Shown: positions 2,708-16,606, counted from the stretch's first letter. The stretch is 64,000 bases of DNA from Solirubrobacterales bacterium (GCA_038237625.1 JBBRYM010000009.1:36398-100397), one strand, 5' to 3'. The notes: generated from the letters alone by a model not told the origin. Made by a program: numbers and translations.

Positions 2708-3976
2708 GTGGCCGGCGAGCGATCCGAATCAGTCACCCTCGCCGACGTGGAGCGCGCCGCCCAGGCGATCGCCCCCCTCACGCGAACCACCCCCCTCCTG
2801 GAGGCCGGCGAGCTGTCGCGACGTTTTGGAGCGCCGGTGGTCCTCAAAGCCGAATGCCTTCAGCGCACGGGCTCGTTCAAGATCCGCGGCGCCGCCAACG
2901 CGATCTCGTCGCTCGACCCCGAACAGCTCGAAGCGGGAGTGTGCGCGGCCAGCGCAGGCAACCACGCCCAGGCGGTGACCGTTGCCGCCGCGCGCCACGG
3001 CGCGAGCGCCGAACTCTTCATGCCTGACTCCGCCCCCCTGGCGAAGGTCGCAGCGGTGCGGGACCACGGCGGCATCGTCCGCCTCGTGGACGGCGGCTAC
3101 GAGGAGGCTCAGGCCGCAGCCATGAATCACGCCCGCGAGCACGGCACAACCTTCGTCCACGCCTTCGACGACCCCGCCGTGGTCGCCGGCCAGGGCACCG
3201 TCGGCCTGGAGATCGCCGAGCAGGACCCCGAGACCCGCCAGATCGTCGTCCCCCTCGGCGGCGGAGGGCTGGCTGCGGGCACCGCGATCGCCGCCGCCTC
3301 ACGCCTACCCGGAGTTCACGTCGTGGGCGTGCAGGCCGAGGCCTGCGCTCCATATCCACGCTCGCTGGAGGCGCACCGCCCTCTCGGCGCGCGCGGAGAG
3401 TCGACGATCTGCGACGGCATCGCCGTAAAGCAACCGGGGAAGCTCACCCTGCCGCTCGTCGCAGCTCATGTCGACGAGGTCGTCACGGTTTCCGACGACG
3501 AGGTTGCCGAGAGCATGGTGCTGTTGCTCGAGCGCTCAAAGCTCGTCGTGGAGGGGGCCGGCGCCGTCGGGGTTGCCGCGATCCTCCACGGCAAGGTGAC
3601 TCCACCCGCCCAGGGCAAGACCTGCGCGGTTCTGTCCGGCGGCAACGTCGACGCCTCGCGCCTCGCCGAATGCATCCGGCTCGGCGAAACCGCGGCCGGC
3701 CGGCGGCTTGTCCTCGTCACCGTGGTCCCGGACCGACCCGGCGCCCTGGCGGCGCTGCTTCGATGCGTTGCCGAGGAGGGAGCCAACGTCCTCGACGTCA
3801 CTCATCTGCGCGAAGGCGTCGACATCCACATTCGCGAAACCGTGATCCGGCTGGTCCTCCAAACCGACGGGCGCGAGCACGCGGCCGCAGTTCTAGCAGC
3901 AGTCGAAGCGCAGGGCTTTCACGCCCGGGCCGAGGCGTCGGCGCTGGGCGAGAGCCAGTCGCACCCGAGCACGTGA
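2708..3976 (+). CDS. ilvA: threonine ammonia-lyase (threonine dehydratase), PLP-dependent, with C-terminal regulatory ACT-like domain
   Basis: 422 aa. It has the PLP-lysine motif GSFKIRGA and the glycine loop GGGGL, plus a C-terminal segment LVLVTVVPDRPGALAALL typical of an ACT-like domain. GTG start. Confidence 0.8.
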   Translation: MAGERSESVTLADVERAAQAIAPLTRTTPLLEAGELSRRFGAPVVLKAECLQRTGSFKIRGAANAISSLDPEQLEAGVCAASAGNHAQAVTVAAARHGASAELFMPDSAPLAKVAAVRDHGGIVRLVDGGYEEAQAAAMNHAREHGTTFVHAFDDPAVVAGQGTVGLEIAEQDPETRQIVVPLGGGGLAAGTAIAAASRLPGVHVVGVQAEACAPYPRSLEAHRPLGARGESTICDGIAVKQPGKLTLPLVAAHVDEVVTVSDDEVAESMVLLLERSKLVVEGAGAVGVAAILHGKVTPPAQGKTCAVLSGGNVDASRLAECIRLGETAAGRRLVLVTVVPDRPGALAALLRCVAEEGANVLDVTHLREGVDIHIRETVIRLVLQTDGREHAAAVLAAVEAQGFHARAEASALGESQSHPST

Positions 3977-8391: not shown

Positions 8392-11250
8392 ATGGGCGTA
8401 GGGACCCCGGAATCGAAGCTTGGCGGCAGGATCTTCGCGAGCGCGCTCGCGGCGATGATCCTCGCCGGTGGCGCGATTTACGTGTTCGGCGGCCCGGAAT
8501 CCGAGCCCGCCCTCGCCGAGTGCCTTGCCGCGCACGCGAGCGCGCCGGCAGAGCCCGACGCCGCCCCGGCCGACCCTGACGCCGGCGGAAATTGCGCAGT
8601 GCGTGGCGTGGAGAGCTTCGCCGACCTTTCCACGGCCGCCCACAGCCTCGGCCTTCGCATCGGCGCGGACAGTCCCGGCGACTACGCGAACAGCCCGAAG
8701 GTCCGGCTTCGCGCGGCCCAGCCAAGCCACGTGCCGGGGACTGACGGCACATGGAAGCCGGTGGGCAAGGGGCCGCTGGTCGCAAACGATCCCACTTACC
8801 CGAACACCTATGGCGAGGGCTTCGCCGACCTCGCGGGCCGCATCTCCGATTACTCCTACGACGCCAAGCACAAGCGGTTGTACGCGGCGGTGGCGAGCGG
8901 CGGCGTTTGGGTCTCGAAGAACGCGGGGGCGAGCTGGCGCTCGATCGGGAACCGGCTGCCAACGCAGACCGTCGGCTCGGTCGCGTACTCGCCTGCCGAT
9001 CACGGCACTCTGATCGCCGTCACCGGCGACAACGCCTTCGGCGGCAACACCTACGGCGGCCTGGGTGTGTTCCGCACGACGAACAACGGGCGCACGTGGA
9101 AGCGCGCCCGCGGTGTGCCGGCCGGGGCCCTGGGCTTCAAGGCAGCGGTCGACCCCCAGCATCCCAAGGTGATCTACGCCGCGACCGGGGCCGGGCTCTT
9201 CCGGTCGCGTAACGACGGGCGCTCGTTTAAAGACGTCGATCTCCCCATCGGCGGCAGCTGTCAGGGCATGACCTTCCACAAGCCCAACTGCTTCTTCGCG
9301 AACATCGTCACCGACGTGGTCGTCCAGGCGAAGGACCACTTCGGCCACAAGGGCAGTCAGGTCCTTGCCGCGGTGGGGTGGCGAGCCGGGGCGAATCCCA
9401 ACTTCAACGGCCAGCCCGAGTCGCCCGCCAACGGCCTGTACCTCTCCGGCAATGGAAAGCCCGGAAGCTTCAAGCGCCTGAACGTGGACAGCAACGGCTT
9501 CGCGCCTCAGGACGCGGTCGGCCGCGTCGAGTTGGGCGCCGCGACGGGCCCCCAACAGGACCACGGCTACGTCTACGCCCTCGTCCAGGACGCAAAGCTC
9601 TTCAACAGCGGCAAGATCGAAGGGCTGGACGTCCCCGGCGGCGACCCCCTGGGCATCGGCATCGACCCCACCGCGACGCCCACCTACCTGAACGGGGTCT
9701 ACGTCTCCAAGGACTTCGGCCGCACCTGGACGAAGATGGAGGGTCGCCAGCAGTTCCTGCTGCCGACCAGCGGCTCGACATTGGCACAGCTCACCCCCCT
9801 GGGCTTCGGGCCTGGCATCCAGTCCTGGTACGACGAGTGGATCAAGCCGGACCCGACCGTGCAGACCAACAACGGCGTCCCGACGCGGGTTGTCCTCGGC
9901 CTCGAGGAGCTCTACGAAAACCGCCTGCCAGTCGCCCAGAACGGCCCAAGCGACTTCAGGACGATCGGTTCCTACACGGCACTTGGCGGCGGCTGCCTGC
10001 TGGTGATCGCCGCGCCCTTCTGCACCGACATCCAGCAGATCACCCAGGCAACGACAACGCATCCCGACCAGCACTCCGGCACGTTTATCCCGGACGGAAG
10101 CGGCGGCGTGACCCTTCTCGCCGGAAACGACGGCGGCAATTACACCCAGCACGTCTCAAGTGGCGGCGACTTCGCCAACTCGAATTGGGGCAGCGGCAAC
10201 CAGTCGGGCTTTCACACCCTGCTGCCGTACGGTGTCAGCGGCTCGAAGGACGGGGTCATCTACGCCGGCCTCCAGGACAACGGCGAGTTGCGCATCGCGG
10301 CCGACGGCACCCAGAACGAGACCTTCGGCGGCGACGGCGTCTTCACCCAGGTCGATCCGAAGAACTCCAACGTTGTCTTCGAGGAAACGCCGGACGCCGG
10401 CGTGTCGGTCTCGACCGACGGCGGCGTGAACTGGACCGACGTCAACCCCCTGGTCGACAACCCGTCGTTTTACTCGCCGCTCGTCATGGACCCGAAGAAC
10501 GCCAATCATGTCCTCACCGGGGGCAAGCAGATCGTCGAGACGACCGACGGGCCGAACGTGACCTCACCCTCCACGCCGTCCGCCCCCACCGACTGGAAGA
10601 CGGTCATGAACCTCGGTAAGTCGAAGAAGACCGGCGTCACGAACCAGGTCTCGGCGATCGGCGTGCGCGGCCGCAGCGTCTACGCCGGTTACTGCGGCGG
10701 CTGCGACGTGGTGCGCGACAACGTCAAGTTCTCCGCGGGCCTGGCGACCAACGTCGGCGGCAAGAAGCCCCCCAAGCCCGGGACCCGTCAGGGCTGGCAC
10801 AAGGTCAAGGCGAAGGGCCTCCCCCAGCGGTTCATCTCCGACGTGACGATCGACCCGCACCGAGTCAAGACGATCTACGTGACCCTCGGCGCCTCGGACC
10901 TGCGGCCCTACGCGGGCCCCCGCGCCACGGGCAACTCCGGCATCGCCGCCAGCGGCGGCCACATCTACAAGTCGACGAACGGCGGCAAGACCTTCCACGA
11001 CATCTCCGGGAACCTGCGCAAGCTCCCTGCCCTGTGGTCCATCGTGCACGGTCACCAGCTTGTCGTGGCCTCGACGAACGGCGTCTACGCATCGCGCGGG
11101 CGAAACGGGGGCCACTATGCGCTCCTCGGCCGCACGCTCCCCGCGGCGCCGGTCTTCAGCCTCGCCAAGGTTCCCGGTCGCCGGCGCCAGCTCCTGGCGG
11201 CGAGCCTCGGTCGCGGCGTGTACCGGTACACCTTCCCGAAGCACCACTGA
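8392..11250 (+). CDS. BNR/Asp-box repeat beta-propeller protein (sialidase/VPS10-sortilin-like), N-terminally anchored
   Basis: 952 aa with an N-terminal hydrophobic anchor. It has repeated SxDxGxTW-type Asp-boxes: SKNAGASWRS, TTNNGRTWKR, SRNDGRSFKD, SKDFGRTWTK, STDGGVNWTD, STNGGKTFHD. Confidence 0.8.
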   Translation: MGVGTPESKLGGRIFASALAAMILAGGAIYVFGGPESEPALAECLAAHASAPAEPDAAPADPDAGGNCAVRGVESFADLSTAAHSLGLRIGADSPGDYANSPKVRLRAAQPSHVPGTDGTWKPVGKGPLVANDPTYPNTYGEGFADLAGRISDYSYDAKHKRLYAAVASGGVWVSKNAGASWRSIGNRLPTQTVGSVAYSPADHGTLIAVTGDNAFGGNTYGGLGVFRTTNNGRTWKRARGVPAGALGFKAAVDPQHPKVIYAATGAGLFRSRNDGRSFKDVDLPIGGSCQGMTFHKPNCFFANIVTDVVVQAKDHFGHKGSQVLAAVGWRAGANPNFNGQPESPANGLYLSGNGKPGSFKRLNVDSNGFAPQDAVGRVELGAATGPQQDHGYVYALVQDAKLFNSGKIEGLDVPGGDPLGIGIDPTATPTYLNGVYVSKDFGRTWTKMEGRQQFLLPTSGSTLAQLTPLGFGPGIQSWYDEWIKPDPTVQTNNGVPTRVVLGLEELYENRLPVAQNGPSDFRTIGSYTALGGGCLLVIAAPFCTDIQQITQATTTHPDQHSGTFIPDGSGGVTLLAGNDGGNYTQHVSSGGDFANSNWGSGNQSGFHTLLPYGVSGSKDGVIYAGLQDNGELRIAADGTQNETFGGDGVFTQVDPKNSNVVFEETPDAGVSVSTDGGVNWTDVNPLVDNPSFYSPLVMDPKNANHVLTGGKQIVETTDGPNVTSPSTPSAPTDWKTVMNLGKSKKTGVTNQVSAIGVRGRSVYAGYCGGCDVVRDNVKFSAGLATNVGGKKPPKPGTRQGWHKVKAKGLPQRFISDVTIDPHRVKTIYVTLGASDLRPYAGPRATGNSGIAASGGHIYKSTNGGKTFHDISGNLRKLPALWSIVHGHQLVVASTNGVYASRGRNGGHYALLGRTLPAAPVFSLAKVPGRRRQLLAASLGRGVYRYTFPKHH

Positions 11251-11334: not shown

Positions 11335-12384
11335 ATGATCCCGACTGCCCAGCAAGTGGCCGACGCCACCGCGTTCGCGATCGGCTTCGATCGACGCGAC
11401 CGCGCCCGCCTGCACGAGCTGTGGGACGGCGTCCTCGACTCCGGGCAATGGGCGGAGGGCAGCCTCACCGCAGAGCTCGAGGCTGCCTGGACCGCTCACG
11501 ACGACATGGCCGCGGTCGCCACCTCAGGCTGGTCGGGCGGCGCGCTCGCGGCGCTCGAGCTGTGCGGCGTGCGGGGCGAGAAGGTCCTCTGCCCGTCGAA
11601 CACCTTCATGGCGACGCCGCTGGCGATCGTCCGCGCGGGTGGCACGCCCGTATTCGTCGACTGCAACCGTGAGGATCTCTGCATGTCGTTCGGGGACTTC
11701 GAGCGCAAGGCGGAGCGCGAGCGGCCACGAGCGGCGTTCCTCGTCCACATCGGTGGCCACATCGCCTTCGACGTCGAGCGGATCGCGGCCTACTGCGACG
11801 CCAACGACATCTTCCTGATCGAGGACTGCGCCCACGCCCACGGGGCGTCCTGGAACGGCCGTCGCCCGGGGTCGTGGGGGAAGGCGGGCATCTACTCCCT
11901 TTACGCGACGAAAACAATCTCCACCGGCGAGGGCGGCATCCTGGTCTCGCGCGATGACGACGTCGTCGAGTTCGCCCGAGACTTTCGCAACTATGGCAAG
12001 CCCACGCATGAGGTCGAGGGGCTGGGGCTGCGGATGAGTGAGTTCACCGCCGCGCTGGGGCTGGTGCAGATCGAGCGACTCGACGAGATCGTCGCCTGGA
12101 AGAACGATGTCGCGTCCCGCTTCCTCGATCCCGTGTTCAGTGGTCGCCTCGGACTCCCGGACGGAATGACCTCGGGCCTCTACAAGTACGTCGTCTTCGA
12201 GGAGATCGCACGCTCGACCGGCCTCGTCTATGCCGACCCCTGCCACCGGATCATGGGCGATCTGGCGGACCTTCCCAACACCGACTGGGTTGCCCAGAAC
12301 CACCGCTGCGTTCCCCTCTATTACCACGGCCCGGAGATGCCCGAAACCGGCGAGCCGTGGGCGGCCCTGAAGGACTCCGCGTGA
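11335..12384 (+). CDS. DegT/DnrJ/EryC1/StrS family PLP-dependent sugar aminotransferase
   Basis: 349 aa. IEDCAHAHGA ... YSLYATKTISTGEGGILVS (PLP lysine context) is typical of the family. Confidence 0.85.
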   Translation: MIPTAQQVADATAFAIGFDRRDRARLHELWDGVLDSGQWAEGSLTAELEAAWTAHDDMAAVATSGWSGGALAALELCGVRGEKVLCPSNTFMATPLAIVRAGGTPVFVDCNREDLCMSFGDFERKAERERPRAAFLVHIGGHIAFDVERIAAYCDANDIFLIEDCAHAHGASWNGRRPGSWGKAGIYSLYATKTISTGEGGILVSRDDDVVEFARDFRNYGKPTHEVEGLGLRMSEFTAALGLVQIERLDEIVAWKNDVASRFLDPVFSGRLGLPDGMTSGLYKYVVFEEIARSTGLVYADPCHRIMGDLADLPNTDWVAQNHRCVPLYYHGPEMPETGEPWAALKDSA

Positions 12385-15029
12385 GGGTCATGGTCACCGG
12401 CGGGTCGGGCTTCATCGGCTCGCACGTCGTCGACAAGCTCCTCGACGCGGGTCACCAGGTTCGCCTCTACGACCTCGCCCCCTCTCCCTATCGCTCGCCC
12501 GAGGAAGTCGACTTCCGAAGCGGCGACATCACCGACCTCGACGCGCTCACGGCTGCCTCACAGGGCTGCCACGCAATCATCCACCTGGCCGCCGTGGCCG
12601 ACGTCAACGACGTGGTCGCCGACCCCGCGAAGGCCCAGGAGGTCAACTCGGAGGGCACGCTCAAGGTCCTCGAGGCGGCGCGCCGGGCAGAGGTCCAGCG
12701 GGTCGTTTACGGATCGACAATCTGGGCCTATTCCGACTGCCCGGAGCGCGACGTCGACGAGGACACCCGCGCCGAGGCCCCCAGCCACCTCTACACCGCC
12801 ACGAAGCTCGCGGGCGAGCACTACTGCAAGTCCTACTCGGAGCTCTACGGCGTCGAGTACACGATTCTGCGCTTCGGCATCCCCTACGGCCCACGCGCGC
12901 GCGACGCGACGGTCCTCGCCGCTTTCTGCGCAAAGGCCGAGAACGGCGAGCGCCTAACCGTCGCGGGGGACGGCAGCCAGTCACGGCGGTTCGTCTACGT
13001 CGAGGACCTGGCGGAGGGCGTCGTCGCCGGCCTGCGGCGGGAAGCGGCCAACCGGCTCTACAACCTCACCGGCGCCGAGGACACGACCATCCTGCAGATC
13101 GCCGAGGCGGTGCGCGACCACGTCGCCGACTCCGGCATCGTCCACACGCCGGGGCGAACCGGCGACTTCGGCAGCAAGGAGGTCTCCTCGGAGCGAGCGC
13201 AGCGAGAGCTCGGGTGGAGCGCCCGGACCCGCTTTGCCGAGGGTTTTCGCTCATACCTCGCCTGGCGCCGCGCGCGCCCCGAGCGTCGCAAGGTCCTGAT
13301 CCTCACCGCCGACATCGGCGAGGGCCACGACCTGCCCGCCCGGGCGCTGGCGCGCGACCTCGCCCTCGAGCATCCGGGCAGCGAGGTCGAGGTCGTCGAC
13401 GGCCTGAGGGCGATGGGCCGAATCGTCACCGCAACGGTTCGCGATGGCTCCTGGTTCTCGTTCAACTGGCTGCCGATCCTCTTCGCCCTCCAGTACGCGC
13501 TGCTTACGCGCTTTCTCCCGGCTCGCTGGCTCGTGCTGCGCCTGGGGTACTTGCTCGGAGCCCGCGGGCTGCTCAGGGCCATCCGCAGCCAGGACCCCGA
13601 CGTGATCATTTCCACGTATCCGGGGACGACTGCGGTGCTCGGTGAGATGCGGCTGCGCCGCCGCCTCGACGTTCCCGTGGTTTCTGCCATCACCGACCTC
13701 GCGGGACTTCGCTTCTGGGCGCACCCCGGAGTCGACCTGCACACGATCACTCACCGCGAGTCGATCGAGGAGGTCGAGACGATTGCAGGACCGGGAAGCG
13801 CGCGCTGGGCGCGGCCCCCGACGGGGCCGGAGTTTTTCGAGCCGCGCGAGCGCGACGACGCCCGCCGCGCCCTCGACCTTCCGCTCGACCGCCCGGCGAT
13901 CATCGTCTCAGGGGGCGGCTGGGGTATCGGCGATTTGGTCGGCGCCGTCGAAACCGCGCTCGAGGTCCCGGACTCAATCGTCCTTTGCCTGAGCGGCCAC
14001 AACCAGCATGCTTGGCGCCGGCTTCGCGAGCGCTTCGGCGCCGATCCTCGGGTTCAGCTGTTGGGCTTCACCGACAGGATGAGCGACCTCCTCGCGGCCG
14101 CCGACGCCCTGGTTCACTCAACGGCCGGCCTGACCGTGCTAGAGGCACAGATCCGGGGCTGCCCGACGATCTCGTACGGCTTCGCTGTCGGGCACATCCG
14201 CGTCAACAACCACGCCTTCGAGCGCTTCGGCCTCGCCCGGGTGGCCCGCTCGAAGCCCGAGCTGGCTGCCTGTTTGCGCGAGGCGCTCTCAGAGCGCGCG
14301 GAGCCCGACGAATCATTCGCCAAGCTGCCCTCGCCGGCCACGCTCGCCATCGAGGCTCGCCCCCGCGTGCGGCCGTTTCCGACTGCGCGCCTGCGCGCTG
14401 CGCGGATTGCCACAGCCGGCGCAGCCGCCTCGGTGATCGCCGGCGCGGCGCTGTTCACGGATCTCGGCTACCCGCTCATGGCTCGCGCGCTCGGCGTCGG
14501 AACCATGCGCTCGGCGCCCGTGGAGGGCCACGACGTCGGGGTGCTCATCGACGCGCCGACCAGCTCGGCCGGCCGGCTCGCTCGCGATCTTGCGCGCCAC
14601 GGCATCACGGCCTCCTTCGCGCTCGACAGCGCTCCCTCAAACAGGAAGCTTGGCACGCTGTTCGCAGCCGGGGACGAGGCCCTGCCCAGAATCGACAGCG
14701 GGGGTCCATTTCATTCGTTCGGCACGGGGGGCCGGCTCGCCGCCGCGGCGAGCTCGCTCGGCTTGCAACGACCCTTCTACTACGAGCCGCCGGAAGACGG
14801 CAGGACCGGCCTGCAGGCGCTGCTGGCGAAGTCCGCCGGCGGTCACCCCGTGGCCGGAGCCGTATTCGTAACCGGACCGGGAGATGGCGCGTCCATCCGT
14901 CCGGGTGACTTCGTGGAGCTGGACCTGACCGTCGGCTCGAAGCCCCGCCGCGCAATCGCCGCTCTCAAGTCCGACCTCCGGACGTCACGCCTGCACGGTG
15001 TGCCGCTGACGCAGCTGGTCGCCCCGTAA
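12381..15029 (+). CDS. three-domain fusion: NAD-dependent sugar epimerase/dehydratase (SDR) + MGDG-synthase/GT28 glycosyltransferase + TM-anchored NodB-like domain
   Basis: N-terminal domain: VTGGSGFIGSH and YTATKLAGEHY (extended SDR). Middle domain: KVLILTADIGEGHDLPARALA ... IVSGGGWGIGD ... STAGLTVLEAQIRGCP (UgtP/MGDG synthase type). This is followed by a TM segment (IATAGAAASVIAGAALF) and a roughly 200-aa tail (VGVLIDAPT ... GITASFAL) resembling a degenerate polysaccharide deacetylase. The GTG at 12381 overlaps the DegT stop; an ATG at 12390 is an alternative start. Confidence 0.8.
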   Translation: MRVMVTGGSGFIGSHVVDKLLDAGHQVRLYDLAPSPYRSPEEVDFRSGDITDLDALTAASQGCHAIIHLAAVADVNDVVADPAKAQEVNSEGTLKVLEAARRAEVQRVVYGSTIWAYSDCPERDVDEDTRAEAPSHLYTATKLAGEHYCKSYSELYGVEYTILRFGIPYGPRARDATVLAAFCAKAENGERLTVAGDGSQSRRFVYVEDLAEGVVAGLRREAANRLYNLTGAEDTTILQIAEAVRDHVADSGIVHTPGRTGDFGSKEVSSERAQRELGWSARTRFAEGFRSYLAWRRARPERRKVLILTADIGEGHDLPARALARDLALEHPGSEVEVVDGLRAMGRIVTATVRDGSWFSFNWLPILFALQYALLTRFLPARWLVLRLGYLLGARGLLRAIRSQDPDVIISTYPGTTAVLGEMRLRRRLDVPVVSAITDLAGLRFWAHPGVDLHTITHRESIEEVETIAGPGSARWARPPTGPEFFEPRERDDARRALDLPLDRPAIIVSGGGWGIGDLVGAVETALEVPDSIVLCLSGHNQHAWRRLRERFGADPRVQLLGFTDRMSDLLAAADALVHSTAGLTVLEAQIRGCPTISYGFAVGHIRVNNHAFERFGLARVARSKPELAACLREALSERAEPDESFAKLPSPATLAIEARPRVRPFPTARLRAARIATAGAAASVIAGAALFTDLGYPLMARALGVGTMRSAPVEGHDVGVLIDAPTSSAGRLARDLARHGITASFALDSAPSNRKLGTLFAAGDEALPRIDSGGPFHSFGTGGRLAAAASSLGLQRPFYYEPPEDGRTGLQALLAKSAGGHPVAGAVFVTGPGDGASIRPGDFVELDLTVGSKPRRAIAALKSDLRTSRLHGVPLTQLVAP

Positions 15030-15043
15030 GGAGCCGGATAGAG

Positions 15044-15964
15044 CTAGGGAGCTTCGGCCGCCGCGACCAGCCCCCCCACCGCGGGGGTCGAGCCGATCAG
15101 GCCCGCTCCCACCGCCACGGTGACGAGAAAGGCAACGAGGGCCGCGCCGCCAAGGGGTGTGTGGTCCCAGCTCTCGCCGCCCAAGAACGGCGCGAGGGCG
15201 ACTGGGACGCTGACCTGGACCACGAAGACGACCGGAGCCACGTGGGTCGCCGGCCTGCTCTGCAGGGCGCTCATCTCGCTGAGGAGGCCGACCATGGCGA
15301 TCAGCCCGGTGACGAACGCCCACCCGAGCGCCGCCGCCGGCTCACCTCGGGAGAGGTAGTCGGTGATGAGCTTCGAGGACACGCCGGTCCATGCGAACGC
15401 GCACCCGGCGCTCAGGGGGACGAGCACGCTCGCGCGCACGCGCCCGCGCCCGCGCAAAACGTAAGGCAGAAGCGCGAGGGCAGCGAGCCCGCCAAGCGTC
15501 AGTACCAGTCGGGAGAAATTGGCATGGCTGGTCACGCGCTCCGGCGCTGCCCAGGCCATGCCCGCGACCCCCGCGACGATCGCCAGGACGGCAAAGACCT
15601 CGCGGCGGCCCACCCGCTCGCCCAGGATGCGGTGGCCGAGCACAAGGAGCAGCAGCAGGCCGCTCGCCAGGGCGGGCTGGACCACGGTGAGCGGCGCCAC
15701 GAGCAGGGCAGCGAGGTGGAACGGCCACCCGGAACCCGACAGGAGCGTCCCCGCCAGCCAGCGGCGGCTTCGAACGAGGCCGCCGAACAACGAGGGTCGC
15801 AGCGCATGGCTCGGAGGGGCGGTGCGGGCATCCAGCGCCTGGATAGCGATCCCGACCGCGAACAGTGACGAGGCCGTGCAGGCAAGGAGGATCCCAAGGG
15901 CGAGCACGCGCGGGATGATAGGAACGTGCGTGCGACCCCACTTCTCGCCCTGGCCGGCCTCCAT
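15044..15964 (-). CDS. multi-pass membrane protein, DMT/EamA-like
   Basis: About 9-10 hydrophobic helices with a two-halves architecture. The family call is tentative. The longest ORF overlaps the divergent deacetylase start by 39 nt. An internal GTG at 15907 would remove the overlap. Confidence 0.6.
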   Translation of the reverse strand: MEAGQGEKWGRTHVPIIPRVLALGILLACTASSLFAVGIAIQALDARTAPPSHALRPSLFGGLVRSRRWLAGTLLSGSGWPFHLAALLVAPLTVVQPALASGLLLLLVLGHRILGERVGRREVFAVLAIVAGVAGMAWAAPERVTSHANFSRLVLTLGGLAALALLPYVLRGRGRVRASVLVPLSAGCAFAWTGVSSKLITDYLSRGEPAAALGWAFVTGLIAMVGLLSEMSALQSRPATHVAPVVFVVQVSVPVALAPFLGGESWDHTPLGGAALVAFLVTVAVGAGLIGSTPAVGGLVAAAEAP

Positions 15965-16606
15965 TCCCTGCCGGCCGCAGCGCCGGTCTTAGCGCCTGTC
16001 GCCCGGGGACTGAAAATCCCGCTCCGGATCAAAACACCCGGTGTCGCGATCACCTTCGACGACGGGCCCCACCCGCAGGGGACTGCGGCCGCCCTCGAGG
16101 CACTCGCGCGCGAGGGGGTGCCCGCAACCTTCTTCCTCGCCGGGGAGCAGGTTGAGCGCTTCCCGGCCCTGGCCCGCGAGATTCTCGACGCCGGCCACGA
16201 GACCGCACTCCATTGCCACCGCCACCGCAACCAATTGCGCCTGACCCCGGCCGCAGCCGCAGAGGACCTTCGCCGCGGCGCCGCGGCAATCGTGGATGCC
16301 ACCGGGCGGCCGCCGCGCCTTCACCGTCCCCCCTACGGGATCTACTCAGCCTCGGGGCTGGCCCACGCCCGGCGGCGTTACGCGCTGCTCCTGTGGTCGC
16401 GCTGGGGACACGACTGGCGAGCGAGCGCGACCGCGGAGTCGATCGCGGCCGAGGCGGGCGGAAGGCTGACGTCCCGCGACGTGGTGCTGCTCCACGACGC
16501 CGACCACTATTCCGATCGGGGCTCGTGGAAGGCGACCGTGGCCGCGCTGCCCCGAATCATCGAGTCGGTGCGCGAGCAGGGTCTCGAGGCAGTGGCGGTT
16601 CCCTAG
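15926..16606 (+). CDS. polysaccharide deacetylase (NodB homology domain)
   Basis: VAITFDDGPHPQGT ... VPATFFLAGEQV ... GHETALHCHRH ... VVLLHD are the classical NodB motifs. No in-frame ATG/GTG/TTG lies between 15926 and the catalytic motif. Confidence 0.8.
   Translation: MRATPLLALAGLHSLPAAAPVLAPVARGLKIPLRIKTPGVAITFDDGPHPQGTAAALEALAREGVPATFFLAGEQVERFPALAREILDAGHETALHCHRHRNQLRLTPAAAAEDLRRGAAAIVDATGRPPRLHRPPYGIYSASGLAHARRRYALLLWSRWGHDWRASATAESIAAEAGGRLTSRDVVLLHDADHYSDRGSWKATVAALPRIIESVREQGLEAVAVP

Follow-up and report, generated by a model that had tools for sequence, protein, structure and literature searches.

A predicted glycolipid glycosyltransferase joined to an epimerase-like domain and a deacetylase-fold pseudoenzyme in Solirubrobacterales

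The locus considered here raises the question of whether a single open reading frame that seems to string together two sugar enzymes, a hydrophobic helix and a relative of the polysaccharide deacetylases is a real gene and, if it is, what its product might help to make. The frame lies in a 64,000-nucleotide stretch of DNA, hereafter the window, from a Solirubrobacterales bacterium (GCA_038237625.1, JBBRYM010000009.1:36398-100397). Solirubrobacterales-type Thermoleophilia are common in soils and rarely cultured, and to our knowledge their envelope lipids have been the subject of hardly any genetic study. A sequence-only reading of the window had described one frame of 882 amino acids (aa) with four parts in order, namely a short-chain dehydrogenase/reductase (SDR) domain, a glycolipid-type glycosyltransferase (GT), a hydrophobic helix and a degenerate domain resembling NodB, that is, the deacetylases of carbohydrate esterase family 4 (CE4). 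The fusion is a genuine gene, conserved in hundreds of soil actinobacterial species, and its last domain is predicted to be a CE4-fold pseudoenzyme.

The frame runs without interruption on the + strand (12357/12381..15029) and codes for 890 aa from its first GTG and for 882 aa from the GTG at 12381; all four parts are present, and every motif quoted earlier occurs in the translation. The N-termini of the orthologues (consensus MRVLVTGGSG) favour the GTG at 12381 as start, which overlaps the TGA stop of an upstream DegT-type aminotransferase gene as GTGA, a layout that would fit coupled translation of the two genes. In the database, the protein of the window (P0002, 879 aa) is given a start at the ATG at 12390, while the orthologues and the GTGA overlap point to 12381. 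Among 5.8 billion proteins, a word-indexed search gave 1561 relatives, and the best 120 of them were examined: almost all are 876-920 aa long, cover 100% of the query at 53-81% identity and carry the same precomputed Pfam set, and those with named sources come from metagenome-assembled genomes of Solirubrobacterales or Solirubrobacteraceae. Because more than 115 full-length orthologues cover 100% of the frame at this identity, it is a coding frame and not a chance high-GC one. A collection holding one genome per species contains at least 598 tblastn-confirmed matches to the fusion, mostly labelled Solirubrobacterales. The orthologues bear only the database names "NAD-dependent epimerase/dehydratase family protein" or "UDP-glucose 4-epimerase." The AlphaFold2 model of the full-length protein has a mean pLDDT (predicted local distance difference test) of 88.4, and the median ratio of non-synonymous to synonymous substitution rates (dN/dS) over 32 independent orthologue pairs is 0.09 for the SDR, 0.11 for the GT, 0.19 for the helix and 0.23 for the CE4-like domain, which denotes purifying selection in all parts.

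These data leave practically no room for the idea that an assembly or frameshift artefact has joined separate genes. The one relative that spoke for it had been called as a 645-aa GT-CE4-like protein without the SDR (P0035) and looked split, but it proved to reflect a single frameshift in an otherwise complete SDR. Its locus, on a 434-kb ENA contig from a close relative (L100:4295-6929), holds the same three-domain gene, of which one frame encodes residues 1-174 and the adjacent frame residues 172-881, the shift falling at about residue 172; the gene caller gave only P0035 for it, and the frameshift is probably an assembly or sequencing error, or the mark of a pseudogene. One frame is kept in the more than 115 full-length orthologues and the at least 598 matches, which stem from many independent projects and hundreds of independent assemblies, and all junctions are under purifying selection. 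The early reservation that assembly might have made the fusion thus falls away.

The identity of the C-terminal domain is less apparent from its sequence. The protein has no Pfam match past residue ~650, and its last 210-230 residues gave neither an NCBIfam nor a Pfam match even at E<=10. A Foldseek search with the full-length model retrieved SDR matches only, and the C-terminal domain was therefore modelled apart, with AlphaFold2, from 42 orthologues (pLDDT 89.8, predicted TM-score 0.86). Compared with the PDB by Foldseek, this model gave 33 matches at E<=1e-3, every one of them a CE4/NodB deacetylase, with TM-scores of 0.66-0.73; the best were BA0150 (4m1b) and Bc1960 (4l1g) at ~1e-8 (best E 1.2e-8), and BA3943, which is annotated as a CE4 pseudoenzyme, was among them at an E of about 1e-7. 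Assignment from sequence failed or was insignificant by every route taken, i.e., Pfam at E<=10, NCBIfam, hmmsearch against the PDB and hhalign against the NodB enzyme encoded nearby, the last with a probability of 1.8%. The CE4 fold proposed in the sequence-only reading is thus upheld because of the predicted structure, sequence methods having left the matter unsettled. Three in-register echoes were seen below threshold: DAP...ASFA of the domain aligns with DGP...ATFF of the CE4 esterase 7ax7, the region of motif 5 and the C-terminus of 4m1b weakly matches the domain, and GDFVELDL aligns with RDVVLLHD in the motif-5 region of the neighbouring NodB.

The same domain is predicted to have lost all metal-binding and acid/base residues and to be non-catalytic. 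No His is found among the conserved columns of the 42-sequence alignment, and VLIDAP, ALPRI and VELDL stand in place of TFDDGP, LHxxRH and LLHD, the correspondence of motifs being drawn from the order of secondary-structure elements and from weak alignments of hidden Markov models, not from residue-level structural superposition. VLIDAP retains one Asp, which is not invariant and whose most likely counterpart in TFDDGP is the second Asp, a metal ligand. The domain is read as a pseudoenzyme because none of the catalytic residues is conserved in it, whereas the neighbouring NodB keeps all five motifs; the loss first noted for the catalytic DD of TFDDGP therefore extends to the whole metal and catalytic site. 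It is not decaying, since its median dN/dS is that of a constrained domain.

It is very improbable that the domain is still an enzyme, acting by a chemistry that dispenses with the CE4 metal triad. The best-conserved stretches of the 42-sequence set do lie where CE4 motifs 1-5 would sit (VGVLVDAP, GD(E/Q)A.PRL..GG, F.Y, AGG..VAGA and GEVVE in the Solirubrobacterales set), and conservation of D75, Q122 and E156 at >=90% in that set suggests that the former active-site groove is constrained. However, none of these polar residues is kept in the wider family: in a 22-sequence alignment that takes in divergent two-domain proteins, only G74, L96, G130, G152 and L181 reach >=90%, with no polar residue among them. 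Nor is a nucleophile, a His or an acid pair left, and the dN/dS of the domain is ~2.5 times that of the two catalytic domains.

A precedent for such a domain is BA3943 of Bacillus anthracis (7bkf, 6hm9), which likewise combines the CE4/NodB fold with an inactivated site. BA3943 is a separate protein in its PDB entries and, according to the title of 6hm9, regained activity in an engineered mutant; in the fused domain, in contrast, all metal and acid/base positions appear lost, and the domain is joined to a glycosyltransferase. A broadened profile of the dead domain also gives weak matches, with E between 1e-4 and 1e-5, to the C-terminal ~50 residues of open reading frames of 250-390 aa in many other Actinomycetota (e.g., G273, G301, G603), which may be a faint trace of CE4 ancestry in the motif-5/C-terminal region; one such match that was checked, a fuller one covering positions 21-194 (L108), is a true NodB enzyme.

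The two domains that precede the helix have clearer relatives. The GT domain matches MGDG_synth (MGDG, monogalactosyldiacylglycerol; PF06925) at residues 333-465 (E 1.4e-10; 42 bits, cut-off 25) and GT1_4/Glyco_tran_28_C at residues 507-645. Its sole two PDB sequence relatives at E<=0.01 are UgtP (9wde, E 3e-16) and plant MGD1 (4wyi, E 2e-13), the nearest solved relatives of this part, which have in common with it the GT-B fold, the G-loop His and the C-terminal nucleotide-sugar motif. In an alignment of 115 orthologues, used for the GT and SDR motifs alike, the G-loop GEGHD (G313, G315, H316, D317), SGGGWG (510-515) and HS..GLT.LEA (579-589) are invariant. UgtP/YpfP and MGD1 are stand-alone peripheral enzymes that move Glc or Gal, and unlike the fusion they have neither an N-terminal SDR nor a helix-anchored C-terminal domain.

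Family resemblance suggests diacylglycerol (DAG) or a glycosyl-DAG as the acceptor. It is quite improbable, in our estimate, that the GT acts on another acceptor, such as polyprenyl phosphate, the primer of a cell-wall polymer or a processive oligosaccharide, and that the dead CE4 domain, like non-catalytic domains of exopolysaccharide machineries, binds the glycan as it grows or once it is exported. This alternative draws on the score of the curated diglucosyl-DAG synthase (UgtP) model PRK13609 of NCBIfam, which the GT matches at E 1.3e-25 and 90 bits, under its cut-off of 500, on the title of 9wde, according to which UgtP-type enzymes can be processive, on the usual action of CE4 folds on polysaccharides, as is the case for all Foldseek matches, and on the pairing of DegT and SDR proteins that is typical of glycan sugar pathways. 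However, the N-terminal half of the GT matches the acceptor-side MGDG_synth family above the Pfam cut-off, its only PDB relatives at the threshold given above are DAG glycosyltransferases, and no polymerase, Wzx/Wzy or ABC exporter is conserved beside the gene across clades in the fetched loci.

The N-terminal domain matches Pfam Epimerase (PF01370) over residues 3-229 with an E of 2.6e-54 and 184.6 bits (cut-off 20.9), and it scores 114 bits with the curated GalE model TIGR01179, under its cut-off of 262. Its closest PDB relative is the UDP-GlcNAc 4-epimerase PelX (6wjb, E 4e-41, 34% identity), followed, by sequence and predicted structure, by TM0509 of T. maritima and the GalE Rv3634c of M. 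tuberculosis. To judge from these nearest structures, it looks like a member of the GalE/PelX subfamily and is a predicted 4-epimerase. Invariant residues comprise GGSGFIGSH, the NAD motif (G7, G8, G10, G13) and the triad T113, Y138 and K142, in which T113 and Y138 align to S121 and Y146 of PelX, the residues mutated in the inactive PelX entry 6wj9. NDP-sugar 4,6-dehydratases carry an Asp or Glu right after the catalytic Thr (TDE), and UDP-glucuronic acid decarboxylases a Ser-Glu pair (TSE). Here the catalytic Thr stands in S112-T113-I114-W115, of which W115 is invariant; neither motif is present, and a 4,6-dehydratase reading was rejected because of this T-I-W sequence. The PelX/GalE 4-epimerases (6wjb, 4zrm, 7ys8) are thus the best sequence and structure matches to this part, and the S/T-Y-K triad and NAD motif are identical in them. 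These epimerases are soluble and occur as separate proteins, whereas the SDR of the fusion is joined to a GT and co-occurs with DegT.

Indeed, the gene for the DegT/DnrJ/EryC1-type sugar aminotransferase lies immediately upstream of the fusion in 76 of the 80 orthologous loci fetched. Its product has sugar aminotransferases as PDB relatives, and all its matches to the PseC, LegC, DesI and ArnB-type models of NCBIfam fall under their cut-offs. The SDR and DegT proteins are argued to act together because of this co-occurrence and of their overlapping start and stop codons, and the association suggests keto-sugar chemistry.

The helix between the GT and the dead domain bears on the side of the membrane that the latter would face. 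In the full-length AlphaFold2 model, a helix of 25 residues at 668-692 is followed by a regular beta/alpha repeat, with a second short helix at 694-704 after a break. The Kyte-Doolittle value (KD19) is borderline in the window protein (1.54) and averages 1.49 in the orthologues, in which the uncharged run after the GT has a median length of 26 aa. The helix is not an interfacial amphipathic one, since its hydrophobic moment (muH) is negligible (0.10) at a mean Eisenberg hydrophobicity (<H>) of 0.58. The 15 residues on its N-terminal side, strongly Arg-rich, carry a net charge of +5.6 vs +0.3 for the 15 on its C-terminal side. The helix is therefore a probable N-in/C-out membrane span, and hydropathy and charge bias together make it rather likely that the dead CE4 domain faces the outside of the membrane.

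The distribution of the domain separates what seems essential in this architecture from what seems added. An exhaustive profile search with the C-terminal domain gave 345 clusters, and 149 sequences from the best 150 hits were retrieved and classified. Short sequences with the domain only, many of them probably fragments, make up 86 of the 149; in 51 the domain follows a GT, complete in 31, to form two-domain proteins of about 600 aa; and in four an SDR is found with the domain and no GT match. Apart from the few SDR-plus-domain exceptions, the dead domain almost always occurs behind an MGDG-synthase-type GT. In one of these exceptions (P0149, 558 aa, metagenomic) the SDR is joined directly to the helix and dead domain, and BLAST and Pfam give the same pattern for another metagenomic protein (P0160, 561 aa); both may be real deletion variants or assembly deletions. 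Six two-domain genes were placed in their loci, four from the same class (L095-L098) and two from other families of Actinomycetota (L106, L107), and a NodB gene lies directly downstream in all six. No SDR or DegT gene was found in the 8 kb of upstream sequence available for each of the four loci of the same class, the loci of the other two being short and uninformative on this point. The core module thus looks like GT-helix-dead CE4 together with an active NodB, and SDR and DegT like add-ons of the three-domain, mostly Solirubrobacterales form. Neither is present in any of the four two-domain loci that have long flanks, and nearly all three-domain loci combine the SDR fusion with DegT, which suggests that SDR and DegT were added together.

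A restriction of the domain to Thermoleophilia was considered and rejected: the narrow profile (A2) gave nothing credible outside the class, and a broader one (A4) found GT-CE4-like proteins with NodB in other families of Actinomycetota. Within the class the distribution is patchy, the narrow profile finding the domain in 13 of 251 sampled genomes, and the genome of the window has one copy. The earlier description of the architecture as unusual and undescribed therefore stands in part: the fusion was not found in the literature searched, yet it is not rare, being a standing feature of many Solirubrobacterales with a core that reaches more widely into Actinomycetota.

The coordinates of the fusion, its domains and its neighbours are collected in Table 1. 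The downstream gene that had been singled out as a bona fide NodB is one by all five CE4 motifs, TFDDGP, H96/H100, RPPYG, DW and LLHD being invariant in 19 orthologues, and it is a conserved neighbour, linked to the fusion in 64 of the 80 three-domain loci. It usually lies directly upstream of DegT; in the clade of the window it lies downstream, behind a convergent gene for a membrane protein akin to the DMT/NIPA families. NodB orthologues of the majority clade have no signal peptide and no hydrophobic N-terminus, and start ~30 aa before TFDDG. A conserved peptide of ~20 aa, L-A-P-V-x-P-x-x-A-x-x-L-G-x-P-R-R-L, precedes the catalytic domain in both the three- and two-domain clades (window 15926-16040; L004-L098); distinct from a signal peptide, it could serve in docking or in association with the membrane.

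Table 1. Location of the fusion gene, its predicted domains and the genes beside it (window coordinates)
Feature	Coordinates	Strand	Basis or content
DegT/DnrJ/EryC1-type pyridoxal phosphate-dependent sugar aminotransferase, 349 aa	11335..12384	+	PF01041 E 2.2e-58
Whole fusion gene	12381..15029	+	882 aa plus stop: SDR, GT-B, helix, predicted dead CE4 domain
Extended-SDR domain, GalE/PelX type (UDP-hexose 4-epimerase-like), residues 1-300	12381..13280	+	PF01370, PDB relatives, invariant motifs
GT-B of MGDG-synthase/UgtP (DAG glycolipid synthase) type, residues 301-660	13281..14360	+	PF06925, PDB relatives, motifs
Single long helix, residues 668-692, uncharged core 676-692	14382..14456	+	AlphaFold2 model, hydropathy, charge bias
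CE4/NodB-fold domain without catalytic residues (predicted pseudo-deacetylase), residues 706-882	14496..15026	+	AlphaFold2, Foldseek, conservation
DMT/EamA-NIPA-like polytopic membrane protein, candidate lipid or sugar transporter	15044..15964	-	Convergent with the fusion
NodB/CE4 polysaccharide deacetylase-family enzyme, 226 aa (predicted active)	15926..16606	+	PF01522 E 1.3e-28

The DMT-like product has weak Pfam matches to Mg_trans_NIPA (E 1.2e-5) and EamA (E 0.008), both under cut-off, and its gene occupies the position seen in the window in only 5 of the 80 three-domain loci, as well as in L088, L089 and L092/L095. A metagenomic protein of 871 aa (P0224), one of the 149 classified sequences, carries a DMT/NIPA-like domain of ~290 aa with roughly nine transmembrane segments fused before GT-helix-dead CE4; this part is 48% identical to the DMT-like product of the window, and P0224, as a Rosetta-stone protein, connects the GT with the transporter family of the neighbouring gene. 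Other genes were set aside. Conservation of the downstream PALP, adh_short, hyp183 and RecD2 genes does not go beyond the majority clade, whose members are closely related, and is a matter of synteny, not of a functional link. A PALP-family gene (a tryptophan synthase beta-like pyridoxal phosphate enzyme) lies at 2813-3655 in the window; in L081 its orthologue is the gene next to the fusion on the downstream side, and 27 loci have it somewhere in the flanking sequence that was fetched, a linkage that looks like clade synteny. A BNR/Sortilin-Vps10-type propeller protein of 952 aa, encoded at 8392-11250 just upstream of DegT, is probably no part of the module, its position being conserved only in the closest relatives (L001 and L100).

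Taken with these neighbours, the gene would encode one membrane-anchored enzyme of a predicted amino-sugar glycolipid pathway, a reading that we consider moderately probable. On the cytoplasmic face, the SDR with DegT would remodel a UDP-sugar donor, by 4-epimerisation or by 4-oxidation then transamination. The GT domain would move a sugar of the N-acetyl-hexosamine type to DAG or glycosyl-DAG, and a cationic aminoglycolipid would result from deacetylation by the separate NodB enzyme, in the way of the HexS/HexD and GpgS/GpgD systems described below. The helix would put the dead CE4 domain outside the membrane, where it would be a module binding sugar headgroups or wall glycan, or a scaffold for a partner, and not an enzyme. 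What the pathway makes, how the protein lies in the membrane and what the dead domain does are predictions for every family member.

Several observations weigh against this pathway. The SDR resembles a 4-epimerase, which does not release the keto-sugar that the DegT enzyme requires, and donor remodelling by SDR and DegT is the weakest step of the proposed model. The GT matches the curated UgtP model far under its cut-off, and the acceptor could be another lipid. The helix is moderately hydrophobic, with an uncharged core of only 15-18 aa in the clade of the window; NodB has no signal peptide in most orthologues, and were it cytoplasmic, a dead domain facing outward would be unable to dock it; and the transporter gene adjoins the fusion in a minority of loci only.

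Some of these points feed an alternative that we hold to be unlikely but to be reckoned with, in which the helix anchors the protein in a monotopic or re-entrant manner and leaves the CE4-like domain in the cytoplasm, where this domain forms a pseudoenzyme-enzyme pair with NodB and recruits it to the GT, so that the GlcNAc-lipid is deacetylated at once at the inner leaflet. The N-termini of the majority-clade NodB proteins, the short uncharged core and the second helix after the break would all fit such an arrangement, as would the co-occurrence of NodB with the dead domain in every architecture examined. Moreover, the deacetylase GpgD of P. aeruginosa is predicted to be cytoplasmic (PMC12713373), and the authors who described HexD likewise considered an intracellular location for that enzyme (PMC10128005). 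However, the helix is uniformly apolar, the uncharged run has the median length given above, and the charge asymmetry is typical of a signal-anchor span. In addition, we know of no CE4 enzyme that needs a CE4 partner.

If the favoured pathway with an outward-facing dead domain is retained, a more elaborate version of it can be formulated, which is speculative and in our view doubtful. The protein would be a transmembrane coupling device of a kind that has not been described for glycolipid synthases, in which the cytoplasmic SDR, remodelling the donor, and the lipid GT are wired through the helix to an outward dead domain that captures the flipped (N-acetyl)aminosugar lipid or wall glycan, thereby positioning, gating or feeding back on synthesis; in addition, the GalE-like SDR may pair with DegT as a non-dehydrating 4-oxidase/transaminase to yield a 4-amino sugar donor and, after NodB, an unusually cationic glycolipid.

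The components of this locus and the logic of making a glycolipid and then deacetylating it are already known. The literature searched yielded no GT that is fused to a conserved dead CE4 domain and encoded next to an active CE4 gene, and the same holds for the SDR and DMT fusions; searches on the pairing of MGDG synthase with polysaccharide deacetylase led to the HexSDF papers only, and those on Solirubrobacter polar lipids to nothing relevant. The locus offers a testable candidate pathway for a cationic aminoglycolipid in Solirubrobacterales and, through the two-domain core, in other Actinomycetota. It is also a clean natural case of a pseudoenzyme domain held by selection beside an active paralogue, and the SDR-GT and DMT-GT fusions provide Rosetta-stone links for assigning partners in glycolipid synthesis.

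Three characterised systems invite comparison. The Arn pathway, which adds L-Ara4N to lipid A, likewise comprises a DegT-type enzyme (ArnB), an SDR (the C-terminal domain of ArnA), a NodB-fold deformylase (ArnD) and small DMT-type flippase subunits (ArnE/F). On the other hand, the SDR of the fusion is devoid of the decarboxylase Ser-Glu pair, the GT is a GT-B of MGDG-synthase type and not a GT2 such as ArnC, and the two-domain core would work without DegT or SDR. No formyltransferase, ArnT or GT-C protein is conserved near the fusion in the fetched loci, and membership of the Arn pathway was rejected on account of the missing decarboxylase, formyltransferase, GT2 and ArnT features.

The gpgSDF system of P. 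aeruginosa follows the make-then-deacetylate logic proposed here: GpgS and GpgD make glucosaminyl-phosphatidylglycerol via its GlcNAc form (PMC12713373), the GT attaching GlcNAc to the membrane lipid and the deacetylase turning the product into the cationic GlcN-lipid. Its parts differ, in that GpgS is a GT4 enzyme acting on phosphatidylglycerol, GpgD belongs to COG3233, GpgF is of the AglD2/YbhN type, and none of them is a fusion.

The closest characterised analogue is HexSDF of Clostridioides difficile. HexS, a GT of the MGDG-synthase family, adds N-acetylhexosamine to a glycolipid, and HexD, a polysaccharide deacetylase, converts it to the amino form, the product being aminohexosyl-hexosyl-diradylglycerol, with a putative flippase co-encoded (PMC10128005). 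The organisms are unrelated, and the system considered here is a predicted one; HexS has been described without a fused SDR or dead CE4 domain, and hexSDF includes no DegT. The Hex flippase candidate is MprF-like, whereas here the transporter candidate is DMT/NIPA-like, encoded on the opposite strand and adjacent in some clades only. What the two have in common is an MGDG-synthase-family GT encoded with a CE4 deacetylase, here in 64 of 80 three-domain and 6 of 6 two-domain loci, and a membrane transporter gene alongside. In C. difficile, the aminohexosyl lipid alters resistance to daptomycin and bacitracin (PMC10128005), and a counterpart in soil actinobacteria could bear on how well they withstand membrane-active antibiotics and cationic peptides, or desiccation.

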